This document shows positions 15,320 to 34,071 of a stretch of DNA of 41,312 nucleotides, piece by piece. The position numbers and the translations under genes are program-made. This stretch comes from Clostridia bacterium (lineage in GTDB: Bacteria; Bacillota; Clostridia; UMGS1840): assembly GCA_017549265.1 (NCBI GenBank), contig JAFYVF010000035.1:1-41312 (forward strand), given 5' to 3'. The notes beneath the pieces are model-generated. The model did not search any database. It saw only the letters and a list, made by a program, of their open reading frames with translations, and was not told the DNA's origin. The stretch's first letter is position 1; every line of letters begins with the position of its first letter.

Positions 15320-17188
15320 TTAGAAAGTAGTTTCTTTTTCTTTTGTCAGGTAATTTTCGTGAGCTTGTAAATGTTCTTCCCAAAGGTTAGCAATTTGGGG
15401 ATCTTTTTCCTCCAATTCTTCAAATTCCTGCGTCATCAGGTATTTGGTGTGTTCTTCAATATGAATTTCGTGATGGTCACGTGCTTTCACGGGACATAAA
15501 ATTTTTTCGCGCATTTTCAGGTTTTCACGGGATGCTTTTGTTGCGTGAAGGGTTTCTGTTTCCATTTTGTTTTCCCAGTCACCCATTTTCAGCATAGAAA
15601 GAATTTTGGATTTTGCGCAGGGGGTGATTTTGCCTGTTTTTGGGTCGGTAAAAAGTCCCATAGAATACAGTTCACGAATCAGTTCTCGTTTTACTGTCAG
15701 TGAATTTTCAATTTCATTCTGGGTGGTGAGTTCCAACTGTTCGGGAAGCAAATTGGCTTTGCTCCAACGAATGAGGGCGTTATCCGTATCATCACCGCCT
15801 AAATGAAGCATTCTTTCAAACAGTGCAAACTGACGGTATAACCGTAACCAGTGTTTGCCAACCTCCAACACTGCATTCCGAATATTTTCCGCACTGACCG
15901 CCAGACGGTTGTCATCCTGCTGAGACAAAATGCTTAACGCTGTTCCTGAAATAACGTTGGTTGGAGTGGAAGAATAACGGGACAGTTCCGAAATACCTGA
16001 AATAGAAACAAACGCTTCTTCCAGACGATCCTGTTTGGATAAGAAACTGTAGGGCAGGGCAGGAGTGTCCATAAATCGAGGCGGCTCGCTTCCTCTTAAG
16101 TACACAATGGGCATTCCGGGCGGCATACCGTAGTATTCTAAGCTATCCACATCCACACTGCCGTCTTCTATCACGGGAATGCCCAAAGCGGCACGATTCA
16201 AATATTCATTGATTCGATTTTGAATTGCGTTGTAATCTCGTTGAATGGGAATTAAGCGTTCAATGATACTGGTTCCGAAAAAACAGCCGGGACGGGCTAC
16301 GGATACCTGTTTTACAAAAGGATAGCCCCTGGTGTGATATTTCGCATTCAGATAGGGGAGCGGTCCTTCGTACAAAAGAATTTGATTATAATATGCCACA
16401 ATCAGAAGGCGTCCGTCCGGATGTTTTTTTGTGGGCTTTTCGTAGTATTCCAACACAATGTCGTATCCGTCTTTTACCTCCTGACCAACACTTTCCAGAC
16501 TACCGGTCCAACCAAGACCACCCGTTACGTTGGTCACGTTTGTCATAGAAAACAAATTGACGGGATGCCCTTTTAATTCCTGTCCCCACTTTTCTTTGAT
16601 TTCGTCCACATGATAAGGATGCGCGTGGATGATGCTTCTTTGTTCGACAATCTGTTCCGTGTAAAGGCTTTCAGGGTAAATTTCATACGGGCTTAACACA
16701 ACGGTATCCACTTCACCTGCCTTTATCGGCTCTTTTTCATCCAGATACAGAAAATCTCCCTGGTCTTTTTGCCAGACAGTTTTGTAAAATGCAGTGCCGA
16801 GCATTTCTGAAATAGCAACAGCATTTGCAATTTTTTCAGAGAAGTTTAACTGTTTGGAAACGGTGTTTAAAACAGCTGTGGAAATTTTTGCATTGGCAAT
16901 ATCGTTTAAATCGGAGCTGTCTGTAAAAGCGCCAATCTGGGGAACCACTCCCGACAGTTTTGCAATTCTGGTTTCCATAATGGGCGCAATATTGTTATAA
17001 ACTGCTCGTTCCTGGTAATCGTAGAGTTTTTCCACCGAATAGATTTTTCTGCCGTTATAATCCACGTCACAATATTGGTTTCCGTTTAAAAAGTTAATGT
17101 TTAAGTTCCATTTTAATTCTAAAGAACTTCGTTTTTCTTTTCTGTCGTGAAACTCATTACACACAAAAATTGGCAGTGTATCAGGCAT
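15320..17188 (-). CDS. Phage portal-like protein (orphan; no other virion genes in the window)
   Basis: 622-aa soluble ORF. The N-terminal WNLNINFLNGNQY, the following NNIAPIMETRIAKL...VPQ region, a central DYNAIQNRINEYLNRAA...PPGMPIVY...P..MD segment and an acidic helical C-terminus resemble tailed-phage portal proteins. This is by-eye recognition only. Confidence 0.5.
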   Translation of the reverse strand: MPDTLPIFVCNEFHDRKEKRSSLELKWNLNINFLNGNQYCDVDYNGRKIYSVEKLYDYQERAVYNNIAPIMETRIAKLSGVVPQIGAFTDSSDLNDIANAKISTAVLNTVSKQLNFSEKIANAVAISEMLGTAFYKTVWQKDQGDFLYLDEKEPIKAGEVDTVVLSPYEIYPESLYTEQIVEQRSIIHAHPYHVDEIKEKWGQELKGHPVNLFSMTNVTNVTGGLGWTGSLESVGQEVKDGYDIVLEYYEKPTKKHPDGRLLIVAYYNQILLYEGPLPYLNAKYHTRGYPFVKQVSVARPGCFFGTSIIERLIPIQRDYNAIQNRINEYLNRAALGIPVIEDGSVDVDSLEYYGMPPGMPIVYLRGSEPPRFMDTPALPYSFLSKQDRLEEAFVSISGISELSRYSSTPTNVISGTALSILSQQDDNRLAVSAENIRNAVLEVGKHWLRLYRQFALFERMLHLGGDDTDNALIRWSKANLLPEQLELTTQNEIENSLTVKRELIRELYSMGLFTDPKTGKITPCAKSKILSMLKMGDWENKMETETLHATKASRENLKMREKILCPVKARDHHEIHIEEHTKYLMTQEFEELEEKDPQIANLWEEHLQAHENYLTKEKETTF

Positions 17189-28477: not shown

Positions 28478-30526
28478 ATGAACCTGTTTTCTACACCTAT
28501 TTCTAATATATCAGGAGTTTCCGATGCCAGGCTTGTGTATTTTCAAAAGCTTGGCATTTTTTCGGTTGCTGATATGCTCTACTATTTTCCGAAAAATTAT
28601 GAAAACCGCATGAATGTGAAAACGGTACATGAGCTTCAGGAAGAAGAACTTGCCACCGTTACCGTGCGGATTTTAGATATTTCTACCCGACGTGTCCGTC
28701 AGAATCTGACACTGATTTCTCTGCTATGTGAGGATGATACGGGAGAACTTAAGGTCACTTTTTTCAATCAGAAGTACCTGACTCAAAAACTGACGGTGGG
28801 AAAAACAGTTACTTTATCCGGAAAAGTTGCTCGTAGAATCGGTTATGTGGAAATGACCAATCCTGCAGTGCAAAAAGAATCTCCTGCAAGCAATTTTTCT
28901 GAAAATTATATCCCAAGATACGCTCTCACAAAAGGACTGACACAAGGTGTGGTTCAAAAAATTGCTTTTGAATGTTTAAAGTTTGCCAAGGAACATCTTG
29001 CAGAAACCCTTCCCATGGAACTTCGTAAAAAATATCATCTTTGTGAACTTTTATATGCTTTGGAAAACATTCATTTTCCAAAAGGAGAAGAAGAACTTTC
29101 GGCAGCAAAAAAACGTTTGGCTTTTGAAGAGCTGTTTTATTTGATGTTGGGACTGGGCAAAATCAAATTGCAGCAAAAAAAAGCCATGGGTCCCAAATTA
29201 ACGAATTATAAAATTGCGGAAGAATTTGCTGAAAAGTTGCCTTTTCCTTTAACCAATGCGCAAAAGAGGGTCACAAGAGAAATTTGCGCTGATTTTAAGG
29301 CAGGACATCAGATGAACCGTTTGGTACAGGGTGACGTGGGTAGCGGAAAAACCATGGTTGCCGCCATGGCAATGCTCATTTGTGCACAAAGCGAGTATCA
29401 GGCAGTTTTGATGGCACCTACGGAAATTTTGGCCCGTCAGCATTATGAAGGATTAAAACCTTATTTGGAAGAATTTCATTTATCATTGGAACTGCTTGTT
29501 GCTTCTATGAAGAAAAAAGAAAAAGACAGGGTGATTTCGGGTCTTGCCACCGGAGAAACTTCTTTGGTGATCGGTACCCACGCACTGTTATATGATAAAG
29601 TGCAGTTTCATAAATTGGGACTGGTAATTACCGATGAACAGCACCGTTTCGGTGTGAAAGCAAGGTCTGTACTGACTGAAAAAGGAGAAAATCCTCATTG
29701 TTTGGTAATGACCGCAACTCCCATTCCCAGAACCTTAGCTTTAATTATTTACGGAGACTTAGACGTTTCTGTGATTGATGAGTTACCGCAAGGCAGAACC
29801 CCTGTGAAGACAAGAATTGCAGGAGAAAAACAGCGGGACAAAGTGTATCAGTTTGTTGTGAAAGAACTTGAAAAAGGGAATCAGGCATTTGTGGTTTGTC
29901 CGCTGATTGAGGAAAGCGAAACCATGGAATTGGAAGATGCTATTCGCCTGCAGGAAGAACTGCAAACTACTTATTTACAAGATTATCAGGTAGGACTTTT
30001 ACACGGCAGAATGAAAGCTGAAGAAAAAGATGCCGTGATGAATGCCTTTTTAAAAGGTGATATTCAGGTGCTTGTTTCCACTACTGTAGTGGAAGTGGGG
30101 GTCAATGTTCCCAATGCCACTGTGATGGTGATTGAAAATGCAGAACGGTTCGGCCTTGCCAGCCTGCATCAGCTTCGTGGACGGGTAGGGCGCAGTAACA
30201 AACAATCCTATTGTTTTTTGAATCTATCTGATGAAAAAGCAAGAAAACGGCTGGAAATTATGGAAAAAACTACCGATGGTTTTGCCATCAGCGAATTTGA
30301 CCTAAAAAACCGCGGGCCCGGAGAATTTTTCGGAATCCGTCAGCATGGACTTCCTTCCACGGTGTTAAGTCGTTTGAGTTATACCATGGAAACGGTTCGT
30401 GCAGCAAAACAAGCTGTTGAATTTTTCCTGGCGAACGACCCCGATTTTCAACGTCCTGAAAATAAGCGGATTTTTGATGCTGTGAACCGTATGTTTTCCC
30501 GCCACCATTATGCAAGCCAATTATAA
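28478..30526 (+). CDS. recG: ATP-dependent DNA helicase RecG
   Basis: Wedge/OB N-terminus and helicase motifs GDVGSGKT, DEQHRFG, MTATPIPRT, QLRGRVGR. Confidence 0.93.
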   Translation: MNLFSTPISNISGVSDARLVYFQKLGIFSVADMLYYFPKNYENRMNVKTVHELQEEELATVTVRILDISTRRVRQNLTLISLLCEDDTGELKVTFFNQKYLTQKLTVGKTVTLSGKVARRIGYVEMTNPAVQKESPASNFSENYIPRYALTKGLTQGVVQKIAFECLKFAKEHLAETLPMELRKKYHLCELLYALENIHFPKGEEELSAAKKRLAFEELFYLMLGLGKIKLQQKKAMGPKLTNYKIAEEFAEKLPFPLTNAQKRVTREICADFKAGHQMNRLVQGDVGSGKTMVAAMAMLICAQSEYQAVLMAPTEILARQHYEGLKPYLEEFHLSLELLVASMKKKEKDRVISGLATGETSLVIGTHALLYDKVQFHKLGLVITDEQHRFGVKARSVLTEKGENPHCLVMTATPIPRTLALIIYGDLDVSVIDELPQGRTPVKTRIAGEKQRDKVYQFVVKELEKGNQAFVVCPLIEESETMELEDAIRLQEELQTTYLQDYQVGLLHGRMKAEEKDAVMNAFLKGDIQVLVSTTVVEVGVNVPNATVMVIENAERFGLASLHQLRGRVGRSNKQSYCFLNLSDEKARKRLEIMEKTTDGFAISEFDLKNRGPGEFFGIRQHGLPSTVLSRLSYTMETVRAAKQAVEFFLANDPDFQRPENKRIFDAVNRMFSRHHYASQL

Positions 30527-30534
30527 GAAAAAGA

Positions 30535-30563
30535 TTGACATTTATTTCTTTTTCATATACAAT
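30535..30563 (+). promoter_or_regulatory. Candidate sigma-A promoter for the membrane-domain::cysE-cysS unit
   Basis: Consensus TTGACA, 17-nt spacer, TACAAT. About 38 nt upstream of the ATG at 30602. Confidence 0.45.
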
Positions 30564-30601
30564 AAATAAAATAAGATTTTTTTAGAAGGGAGGACGACGT
30601 T

Positions 30602-32674
30602 ATGACCCGATTACAACAAAAATCCACCGCAGTTTTCAAATGTTTGTTTGTATTGTTTGCCGTGATGAGCTTTGTTTCGGCGTTTGTTGGTATTTTTGTT
30701 GGCAGCAAAACTTTTTACGGTGGTTCTTTTTGGTTGCCTTTCTTCTATTTAGTGGGATTTTTGGGATTAGGATTTTCCTATTACAAACATTTCAGTGAGA
30801 AAAAAAGTGGTTTTCCGTTAGCGCTTGCTATGTGCTTCGGCTTTCGCCTGTTGGCGGTTTGCCTTTTGCAGTTGGAACCGTTCTCGGATTTTAAGATTTA
30901 TCACGATACGGCACTTCTGTTGGCAGAGGGGACACCGTTTCGCGACGCATACGTTTCTTCTTTCCCTCATATCATCGGTTTTTCTGAGGTGTTAAGCTGG
31001 TGCTACCGTATGTTTGGTGCCAACATTTTTGTTGTGCAACTGGGAAATGTATTGATAGAAACGGCAACCGCTTTGATGTTGTATCTTTGTGTAAAACGGT
31101 TGTTTTCCCGTAAAATTGCTAATTTTACCACATTTTTATATGCGATTTCCCCCTCATTTATATTCTATTCTGAGTTTTTGGCGACAGAGATTTTATTTAC
31201 GTTCTTGTTGATGGTGCTTTTCTATCTTTCCCTTCGTTTTTGGGAAAAGGGAAGCGTCACACTCGGAATTTTATTTGGTATCCTAGCGGCAATTTCCAAT
31301 TGTATTCGTCCATGCGGAATGATACTTCTGCTGGCGTTTGCAATCTATACATTCATTATCGTGATTCCTAAAAAACGGTTCTTGTCCCTGACACTTGCAG
31401 TTCTTTGTTATCTGGGGTGCAACATGGGGTTATACCGTGGCATTGAAATGATAAACGGTCAAAGTATTGCACATATGCCGATTGGCTACAATTTATATAT
31501 TGGTTCCAATGCCGATACCAATGGACAGTGGAATGCAACAGACGATGCTTATGCCAAAGAATTGATTGGTAGTTCTGATATTTCACCCGACCGGATGCAC
31601 AAACGTTTGTGGGAAGAAGGATTTTTAAGATACCGTGAAAACGGAATTTATTCCAATGTCAAGCTCGGATTCTTGAAATTTGGTATTACTTGGGGTACCC
31701 AAATGCAGCCTGCTGTATCTTTGCGACAGAGTAGTGATTTTGCATTTTGGGACGCTATATTCCAGTTTGGAAATTTATCCAATGCATTTCACCTGATTTT
31801 GATGTTCGGTATTTTAGTGGGTGCAGTCAGATTGCGCCGTAAAAAAGAGCACAATGCGGTGATGTTTCTTTGTATTTTCACGTTGGGTGTTGCAGCAGTG
31901 CATCTTCTGGCAGAAACCCAAGAACGTTATTCCTATGGAGCACTTGCTATGATGATGCCCGTTGCCGCATTGGGGCTTTGTCGCAGTTTTGAAGCTTGTC
32001 GAAATGTGTTTTCCCGTCTTCGTGAAGACATCAATGCGGTAATGGAAAAGGATCCTGCCGCTAAAAATAAATTGGAAGTGTTCTTGCTGTCTCCCGGTAT
32101 TCATGCTTTGTTCTGGCATCGGGCAGCGCATCGGTTGTATCTGAAAAAACGGTATTTCTTAGCACGTAGTTTATCGCAGTTGACCCGACTGTTTACCGGC
32201 GTAGAAATTCACCCCGGTGCCAAAATTGGCCGTGGTGTTATGATTGACCACGGGATGGGCGTGGTGATTGGTGAAACCGCTGAGGTTGGTGACGGTTGTA
32301 CCATCTACCAGAATGTAACCTTAGGCGGTACCGGTAAAGATACCGGCAAACGTCATCCCACTATTGGGAAAAACGTGATGATTGGAAGCGGTGCCAAGGT
32401 GCTTGGTCCGTTTACCGTGGGAGATAATTCTAAGATTGCGGCAAATGCTGTGGTACTTCGGGAAGTTCCCGAAAACAGCACATGTGTGGGTGTGCCTGCA
32501 CGAGTGGTTATCCGAAATAACGTGAAAGTTTCCGGAGCGGATTGGCAGACAGACCAGACCCATATTCCCGACCCGTTATCTCAGGAACTGTGCAGAATGC
32601 TTGCCCGCATTGAAAAGCTGGAGGCGGATAACAAAAAACCGGAAGCGGATGTTAAAACAGAGAAAGGAGAATAA
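30602..32674 (+). CDS. cysE: Fusion protein: N-terminal polytopic membrane domain (GT-C/ArnT-PMT-like glycosyltransferase fold suspected) joined in frame to a complete Bacillus-type serine O-acetyltransferase
   Basis: A single uninterrupted 690-codon frame with RBS GGGAGG. Residues 1 to about 465 contain roughly a dozen hydrophobic segments and a first-loop motif, [19 protein letters not shown]. From codon 469 (GTG at 32006), [19 protein letters not shown]...[13 protein letters not shown]...[31 protein letters not shown]...[13 protein letters not shown]...VGVPARVV...PDPLS is collinear with B. subtilis CysE from its first residues to its tail. Confidence 0.75.
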
Positions 32675-32676
32675 CT

Positions 32677-34071
32677 ATGAAGATTTTTAATACATTAACC
32701 ATGCAAAAAGAGGAATTTAAACCTTTAGAAGAAAACAAGGTAAAAATTTATGCGTGCGGACCTACCGTGTATAACTATTTCCATTTGGGAAATGCACGTC
32801 CGTTTATCATTTTTGATACCTTGAGAAGATATTTTGAATATCGTGGCTATGATGTAAAATTCGTGCAGAATTTTACCGATATTGACGATAAAATGATAAA
32901 ACGTGCCAACGAAGAAGGCATCACCGTAAGAGAACTGGCAGACCGTTTCATTAAAGAATACTATACTGATGCCAAAGGTCTGGGTGTAAAAGAAGCGGAC
33001 GTTCATCCCAGAGCAACCGATGTTATCCCCCAGATTATCAAAATGTGCGAAACCTTAATTGAAAAAGGCTATGCATACGAAGCAAACGGAGACGTTTATT
33101 TTGAAACCAAAAAATTCAAAGATTACGGTAAACTGTCTCATCAGCCTTTGGAAGACTTAGAAGCAGGTGCCAGAATCAATGTCAACGAAGATAAAAAAGA
33201 CCCTATGGATTTTGCCATCTGGAAAGCAAAAAAAGAAGGAGAACCCTCCTGGACTTCTCCCTGGGGCGAGGGCCGTCCCGGTTGGCATATCGAATGTAGT
33301 GCCATGGTCAATGAATACTTGGGCGAAACCATTGATATTCATTGCGGCGGTAAGGATTTATCCTTCCCACATCATGAAAATGAAATTGCGCAGTCTGAAG
33401 CAGCAAACGGTGCTCCTTTTGCTAATTATTGGATGCATAACGGCTATATCAATATTGATAACCGAAAGATGTCCAAATCTTTGGGTAATTTCTTCACCGT
33501 GCGTGATTTAGCAGAAAAATTCCCCTATGATGTGCTTCGATTCTTTATGCTGTCTGCTCATTACAGAAGTCCTATCAACTTCTCTGATGAATTGTTGGAA
33601 CAGGCAAAAACCGGATTAGGCAGAATTGTTACCTGTATGAAAAATCTGGACTTTTTAGCCGATAAAGTTGCAGACGAGGCGATTACGGAAGCAGAACAGG
33701 AAACCTTAAATTCCTTCCGTGATAAATTCATCACTGCTATGGATGACGATTTAAATACCGCAGAAGCTATCGGCATCATTTTTGAACTGGTTCGTGAAAT
33801 CAACACCAACACCAAAGAAAATGCCACCAAAGGATACGTAGAAGCTGCGAAAGCGGTGCTCACCGAATTAACAGGTGTGTTAAATATTGCAAGAGAAGAA
33901 GAATCCTCCGATGTGGATGTGGCACTCATTGAAGAAAAAATTGCAGAACGAACCGCTGCCAAAAAAGAGAAAAACTTTGCCCGTGCCGATGAAATCCGTG
34001 CAGAACTTCTTTCTATGGGAATCGTGATAGAAGATACCCGTGAGGGAGTAAAATGGCATAAAGCAGACTAA
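32677..34071 (+). CDS. cysS: Cysteine--tRNA ligase
   Basis: Class I motifs HLGNARP (HIGH) and KMSKS, plus the Zn-site region WHIECS. It starts 2 nt after the preceding stop. Confidence 0.95.

Follow-up and report, generated by a model that had tools for sequence, protein, structure and literature searches.

Serine O-acetyltransferase (SAT), the product of cysE, is regarded as a soluble cytoplasmic enzyme whose regulation involves feedback from cysteine and a complex with CysK. The described proteins closest to the one studied here are the short-type CysE (TIGR01172) of the Bacillus/Clostridia type, the PMT_2/GT-C membrane enzymes (ArnT, PMT and STT3/PglB/AglB) and the CysE-CysS fusions of about 707 aa annotated as 'cysteine--tRNA ligase (modular protein)', in which CysE is likewise joined in frame to an operon neighbour. 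The element of interest is a single open reading frame (ORF) of 690 codons, P0001, on a 41,312-nt contig of an uncultured Clostridia bacterium (JAFYVF010000035.1 from assembly GCA_017549265.1), the whole of which was analysed and is referred to as the window. It encodes a predicted GT-C-fold membrane domain followed, without an intervening stop, by a complete CysE. Such a GT-C-CysE protein combines two known families in a new domain architecture: a full-text literature search found no description of either a membrane-bound SAT or a fusion of this kind, in keeping with the first-pass annotation of the sequence, whose author knew of no membrane-tethered SAT. The CysE-CysS fusions are soluble and have the downstream cytoplasmic CysS as their partner, unlike the upstream membrane partner found here.

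The in-frame GT-C-CysE fusion is genuine and conserved. Logan contigs from runs X1 and X2 (study P1) cross the junction between the two halves with zero differences, and a contig of run X4 (study P2) crosses it with two substitutions and no indel. A homologue search covering 5.8 billion proteins recovered at least 16 fused homologues, from NCBI, ENA, JGI and Logan assemblies, with PMT_2 and Hexapep domains, 609-709 aa in length and 42-82% identical, and 16 of them could be aligned end to end. Their source organisms are uncultured 'Clostridia bacterium' metagenome-assembled genomes (MAGs), mostly from animal-gut metagenomes, and public protein sets hold the fused proteins without attached names. 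The position of the gene is conserved as well: of 12 related fused loci that were inspected, 11 have cysS directly after the fusion, and the remaining one, L081, stops at a contig end (L002 was left out of the ORF listing of fused loci). The gene order in these relatives is recG-fusion-cysS-yajC-DUF3792 or folC-fusion-cysS.

The N-terminal half of the protein is, as judged from profile matches and structure prediction, a membrane protein of the GT-C fold. Residues 132-270 match Pfam PMT_2 (PF13231) with an E value of 7e-13 and 49.5 bits, against a gathering cut-off of 26.1, while the related TIGR03663 and PMT models score under their cut-offs on the fusion protein. An AlphaFold2 (AF2) monomer model, built on 16 homologues, has a predicted local distance difference test score (pLDDT) of about 90 over residues 1-480. 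When compared with the PDB by Foldseek, this model retrieved exclusively GT-C enzymes (STT3, AglB and ArnT) at E <= 0.001, with a probability of 1.0 and a best E value of 3.6e-5; PglB, ALG3/9, PimE, Emb and Pmt4 fell just below this level. The similarity to the PMT_2/GT-C enzymes extends to an invariant aspartate that opens the first long outer loop and to a large outer loop late in the chain. The differences are that there is a single aspartate in place of a DE or DxD motif, and that two extra N-terminal helices are present, which are absent in P0010.

Combining the helices of the AF2 model with charge counts over 16 homologues predicts a topology of 12 transmembrane (TM) helices with both termini inside, in which each predicted cytoplasmic loop is net positive across all 16 homologues. 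This arrangement would put the CysE domain on the cytoplasmic side, where acetyl-CoA is. Of the 40 invariant residues of the membrane domain, 30 fall in loops predicted to be extracytoplasmic, and no cytoplasmic loop contains any. The aspartate of the first outer loop, D96, is encoded at 30887-30889 within an SDF motif and does not vary in any of the fused, split and stand-alone relatives; like Y117, P122 and H123 it is invariant even in 22 stand-alone or split relatives at about 25% identity. Over the whole domain, 26 positions are invariant between the window and these 22 proteins, including P93, D96, Y117, P122-H123, N233, R236-P237, W310-N311, D314, E438 and R442-Y443. The stand-alone homologues of 480-510 aa (P0129-P0276), which have these 26 residues in common with the N-terminal domain, are collinear with it over their full length. 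Because all 26 family-invariant positions are kept, the domain has not degenerated. The pattern suggests a catalytic role for the first outer loop and for D96, and the membrane domain has probably kept a conserved, outward-facing active or binding site.

The C-terminal half is a bona fide SAT orthologue at the canonical cysE-cysS position. The TIGR01172 cysE model scores 241.4 bits on the full protein and 245.1 on the domain alone (cut-off 210.65), its alignment starting at residue 474 and taking in positions 2-162 of the 162 in the model; NF041874 also scores above its cut-off, Hexapep repeats are detected, and the best match to a solved SAT in the PDB has an E value of 2e-43. The residues D484-P485-A486, E535 (a glutamate within the 'EIHP' of the aligned fused homologues), D549-H550 (32246-32251) and R584-H585 do not vary among 16 homologues and can be aligned with solved SATs; we take D484, E535, D549, H550, R584 and H585 to be D92, D143, D157, H158, R192 and H193 of E. 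coli SAT. The free CysE genes retrieved from related genomes, those of cultured Anaerotruncus and Acetanaerobacterium among them, show 59-72% identity to the domain, and free CysE genes of relatives begin exactly at the codon aligned with V469 (the adjacency of cysS to the retrieved free genes was checked in L004, L006 and L007). With the short-type CysE the domain shares collinearity over the full length, beginning at the first residue, conserved catalytic and substrate residues, a conserved C-terminal tail with an IPDP motif and a place directly upstream of cysS. It differs in having no independent Shine-Dalgarno (SD) sequence and in being joined covalently, on its N-terminal side, to a polytopic membrane domain of 468 aa. 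Among the other 77 best CysE loci in genome contigs, none comes from the three MAGs carrying the fusion, which is a weak check on a second cysE.

The longer enterobacterial SAT chains align with the window CysE only from about their residue 91 onward, the window protein being without their N-terminal segment, which builds the hexamer. The CysE half may accordingly be trimeric, and its three N-termini could then all face the membrane; in the AF2 model, residues 452-483 form a single unbroken helix. The chain ends ...KGE; in E. coli SAT, the terminal isoleucine is needed for CysK binding. Between the window and L001, pN/pS is 0.228/0.739 in the membrane domain (dN/dS 0.086) and 0.035/0.635 in the CysE domain (dN/dS 0.025), substitution patterns that indicate purifying selection on both halves.

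The signals at the junction were compared in 13 fused genes for which DNA was available, the window included. In every fused homologue the junction codon is start-capable (GTG, TTG or ATG), although in L082 the ATG is one codon upstream. In eight of the 13 genes (L003, L084, L085, L083, L104, L081, L082 and L105) an ATG or TTG is accompanied by pairing with the anti-SD of -5.7 to -12.5 kcal/mol, which falls in the top 0-7% of in-frame positions and often beats the start of the gene itself. By contrast, the window, L001, L002, L102 and L103 all have GTG, with pairing at the background level of -0.6 to +0.6 kcal/mol. In the window, the 17 nt upstream of the GTG at 32006 pair at -0.6 kcal/mol, and 65% of in-frame positions are equally strong. 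As this GTG is without an SD, the tethered SAT is expected to be the main product, and in the window SAT is probably made mainly in this form.

The features of the locus, and those of relatives referred to below, are listed in Table 1. Between the recG stop at 30526 and the start of the fusion there is a spacer of 75 nt that contains the putative promoter, and a homologous promoter stands ahead of the free cysE of L004. The stop codon of the fusion is a TAA (32672-32674), and cysS opens with an ATG at 32677. The sequence-level description in the first-pass annotation is borne out in full by these results: the uninterrupted 690-codon frame, an N-terminal part resembling GT-C enzymes in an early-loop motif (in which D96 lies) and having about 12 helices and a loop of about 110 aa, a complete CysE from codon 469 whose cytoplasmic location had been put forward for checking, an internal GTG lacking an SD, a cysS start 2 nt past the stop, and a TTGACA-17-TACAAT site in a 75-nt upstream region.

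Table 1. Positions of the features discussed (numbering of the window, except where a locus of a relative is named)
Feature	Position	Strand	Basis or remarks
recG, 682 aa	28478..30526	+	ORF; RecG Pfam architecture on syntenic genes of relatives; conserved upstream neighbour
Putative sigma-70-like promoter TTGACA-17-TACAAT for the fusion-cysS unit	30535..30563	+	Consensus match, 11/12
Shine-Dalgarno sequence AGGGAGG of the full-length ORF	30587..30593	+	Pairing with anti-SD -11.6 kcal/mol
Fusion ORF P0001, 690 codons	30602..32674	+	Single frame without internal stop; stop codon included in the coordinates
PMT_2-family GT-C-fold membrane domain, residues 1-468	30602..32005	+	Pfam, AF2, Foldseek, charge and conservation; topology predicted
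First long extracytoplasmic loop, residues 91-123	30872..30970	+	Putative catalytic loop; D96, Y100, Y117 and F121-P122-H123 unchanged across the 16 fused proteins
Large extracytoplasmic loop, residues 282-388, 107 aa	31445..31765	+	15 invariant residues, including GYNLY.G.N....G.WN..D
Junction codon GTG (V469)	32006..32008	+	Start-codon position of free CysE in relatives; without SD here
Complete short-type serine O-acetyltransferase (CysE), residues 469-690, predicted cytoplasmic	32006..32671	+	TIGR01172, NF041874 and PDB SAT matches
cysS, 464 aa	32677..34071	+	ATG 2 nt past the fusion stop; SD pairing -9.0 kcal/mol
Leader of L004, 87 nt	L004:2510-2596		Replaces the whole membrane domain
Split junctions	L086:7290-7500; L087:4990-5200; L089:4300-4480		

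Comparison with orthologues, on which the first-pass annotation had let its claim depend, gives a mixed answer: fused homologues recur, but four relatives are split and another has no membrane domain at all. In L086 (GCA_052848735.1), L087, L088 and L089, a PMT_2 gene of 482-489 aa and a cysE of 215-217 aa are separate, overlapping genes that are 1 nt out of frame, with a shared overlap of 59 nt in different frames in L086-L088; relative to the fused L085, the length of the linker differs by this single nucleotide. Each split cysE has a TTG start behind AAGGGGG, which pairs with the anti-SD at -10 to -11 kcal/mol. A programmed frameshift was considered for these genes and seems unlikely, since the T7 run at the overlap in L086 is not found in L087, L088 or L089; separate initiation explains the split arrangement, as all four have their own SD and TTG.

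In L004, recG is 83% and cysE-cysS 89% identical to the window at the DNA level, and the partial CysS of this locus looks, by eye, the same as that of the window. Homology with the window ends at 30586 and restarts exactly at 32006. The shared promoter is followed by an unrelated leader with a GGAG and then by a GTG-initiated cysE. This leader has no Rfam match, and the idea that it is a remnant of the lost domain, homologous to the linker, was dropped because its local alignment scores to the fused genes are within the shuffle range. A tree of 96 CysE-domain sequences nests L004 in the fused clade, with support of 97 and 99 in the Shimodaira-Hasegawa-like approximate likelihood ratio test (SH-aLRT), so loss of the membrane domain is the parsimonious reading of this locus. 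The fused proteins form a near-clade of 19 fused and 3 free sequences in this tree, requiring three state changes. The more parsimonious reading of these sequence comparisons is that the fused state is ancestral and the split state derived, and the covalent tether appears, across the clade, to be facultative and evolutionarily labile.

The family to which the membrane domain belongs is much larger than the fused clade. A profile search of 1.84 billion representatives identified 585 clusters at E <= 1e-30, nearly all of them stand-alone proteins of 450-530 aa over which the whole profile is covered. Within 5 kb of a stand-alone member, neither cysE nor cysS nor recG is present in any of 12 metagenome loci, and a family-wide linkage of GT-C genes to cysE is rejected on this count; the neighbours scanned in three of these loci are unrelated housekeeping genes (pyrD, pcrA, motAB and dnaB/dnaI). 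L006, a relative with free cysE that lies just outside the fused clade, departs from this: its cysE and cysS are followed directly by a separate gene for a 477-aa protein homologous to the membrane domain (L006:3321-6804; hhalign probability 99.95%, E value 3e-38, 27% identity). A few stand-alone family members carry additional domains, namely an N-terminal Glyco_tran_28_C domain in P0244 and a C-terminal Cu_amine_oxidN1 domain in P0245 and P0251, which hint at a glycan or cell-wall role of the family. As for in-frame CysE-CysS fusions, many proteins of about 700-725 aa (P0020 and P0032-P0120) were encountered, some named from Nitrospirota records, so that in another phylum cysE has merged with the gene that follows it.

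We consider it likely that P0001 is a real two-part membrane protein, that SAT is mainly tethered in the window, and that the two halves work independently of one another with the tether being tolerated or mildly advantageous. Independence is the most likely state of the halves because both split and domain-less relatives exist. A different account would have the 690-aa frame translated, but the relevant SAT produced as a free 222-aa CysE from an internal start at the GTG at 32006, leaving the tether as a tolerated by-product. The viability of free CysE is evident from the split relatives and L004, and this account would also make sense of the start-capable codon at every junction, of the strong SD kept there in eight of the 13 genes, and of the GTG, which is kept in 5/5 of the genes in the window's subclade when just 2/23 of their conserved valine columns are all-GTG. 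We nevertheless regard it as unlikely: pairing at the junction in the window and its four closest fused relatives is no better than at random in-frame positions, Firmicutes are generally SD-dependent, the excess of GTG is not statistically significant, and within the coding region of the membrane domain no promoter-like site exceeds 9/12, nor is the number of such sites beyond the shuffle expectation. That an assembly artefact, a chimera or a sequencing error hides a stop or frameshift between two genes, a doubt of the first-pass annotation, would fit the metagenome-assembled source and the difference of merely 1 nt in the linker of split relatives. It is ruled out by the indel-free contigs of three runs and the fused frame in independent assemblies, and the linker in the window has no homopolymer run; any probability left to it is negligible.

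The remaining explanations concern what the two halves do. Neofunctionalisation, as raised in the first-pass annotation, would turn the left-handed beta-helix (LbetaH) domain into a cytoplasmic O-acetyltransferase that, in partnership with the GT-C domain, modifies a glycan of the envelope or a lipid-linked sugar and has no part in cysteine synthesis. Rosetta-stone logic favours this, as do the slightly higher score of the NCBIfam EpsC model, which describes a SAT-like protein of exopolysaccharide loci (250 bits, against 241 for cysE), the gene directly after cysS in L006 and the family member with a Glyco_tran_28_C domain. It is nonetheless highly improbable, as all serine- and cysteine-binding residues of solved SATs are invariant, the identity to free CysE genes is high, dN/dS is lower in the CysE domain than in the membrane domain and not higher, no glycan genes were found near the fusion among the window ORFs scanned, and the 12 stand-alone loci have no cysE or cysS within 5 kb, with unrelated housekeeping genes as neighbours in the three that were scanned. 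The use of the same domain as a free protein in L004 and the split relatives, together with the internal SDs of most other fused homologues, argues against neofunctionalisation and equally against any obligatory functional coupling. Another form of coupling, in which GT-C domain and SAT are one functional unit at the membrane, with the supply of O-acetylserine or cysteine being coupled to or sensed by extracytoplasmic glycosylation, or a cysteine- or serine-derived envelope conjugate being made, strikes us as unlikely. Alternatively, the membrane domain could be a degenerate, non-catalytic anchor or scaffold whose sole role is to localise SAT. The lack of neighbouring glycan genes, the single acidic D96 in the first loop and the dispensability of the domain in L004 would suit an anchor, but the retention of all 26 family-invariant positions, the concentration of invariant residues in the outer loops, a dN/dS of 0.086 and a conserved 107-aa outer loop for which a mere anchor has no need make this very unlikely.

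Several observations weigh against the preferred reading of a tethered SAT with independent halves. With regard to the membrane domain, the Foldseek TM-scores to solved GT-C structures are only about 0.33 when normalised over all 690 aa, at identities of about 12-17%; the profile of the family finds no match among PDB sequences, and the N-domain tree lacks resolution at its deepest nodes. The LbetaH part of the AF2 monomer is poor, with pLDDT below 50 over residues 549-664, and the label of housekeeping SAT is drawn from synteny and orthology only. Retention of the junction GTG is a weak hint that an internal start is still used. The gene order of L006 is a second kind of linkage, which suggests that the association with cysE-cysS may not be purely accidental. 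Finally, the evidence is wholly computational and the source organisms are uncultured.

The fusion lies in unremarkable chromosomal DNA from a spore former, with a spoIIIA operon, topA, lgt, dprA, fakA and recG; cysK is not found within the 41-kb window. The first-pass annotation had reasoned that the upstream region is too short for the T-box leader of cysE-cysS in Bacillus. No T-box or other Rfam family indeed reaches threshold in the window, but the absence is not special to the fusion. At the Rfam gathering threshold, none of 13 related cysE loci has a T-box (L001, L003-L008, L010, L012, L019, L060, L083 and L086); these belong to an Oscillospiraceae-like group that includes cultured Anaerotruncus and Acetanaerobacterium, and because free-cysE relatives are among them, the lack of a T-box is not tied to the fusion. 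This comparison indicates that the regulation of cysE-cysS in the Oscillospiraceae-like group differs from the Bacillus model. Elsewhere in the window, adjoining the spoIIIA operon and an MgtC gene, a 622-aa ORF on the reverse strand (15320-17188) has a P22-like or SU10-like phage portal domain (E value 1e-12). No other obvious phage genes were seen among the ORFs scanned, and this ORF may be left over from a prophage or may encode a portal that has been domesticated.

The history that would best accommodate the preferred reading begins in an ancestor of a clade of gut Clostridia, whose GT-C-cysE-cysS operon would have had the GT-C gene next to the promoter, ahead of cysE. Fused and split states could then have interchanged through 1-nt indels in the short purine-rich linker, which also holds the SD and start codon of cysE, while one lineage would have deleted the GT-C part. 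In the subclade of the window the internal SD would have decayed, leaving the GTG alone. SAT would as a result be made mainly or only in tethered form, with the strong SD at 30587 driving translation of the whole 690-aa chain from a transcript shared with cysS; in this inner-membrane protein the SAT domain would hang from TM12 into the cytoplasm. The CysE half would be the ordinary housekeeping SAT of the lineage, forming O-acetylserine from serine and acetyl-CoA just under the membrane.

The facultative nature of the link tempers its significance. If the two halves were one functional unit after all, then the repeated linkage, as a fusion, as a translationally coupled overlap and as the cysE-cysS-GT-C order of L006, would have been selected and would not be accidental. 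Such genes are easily mis-annotated, as a 'glycosyltransferase' alone or a 'serine acetyltransferase' alone. With the only recognisable cysE at the canonical locus joined to a predicted 12-TM protein, this would, as far as the literature search shows, be the first membrane-tethered SAT. The fused proteins also offer a handle on a large GT-C family of at least 585 clusters that is without a solved structure or a known function. The clade constitutes a natural series, from split genes through fusions with an internal start and fusions without one to a domain-less locus, in which tethering can be set against the regulation of SAT and localised O-acetylserine synthesis.

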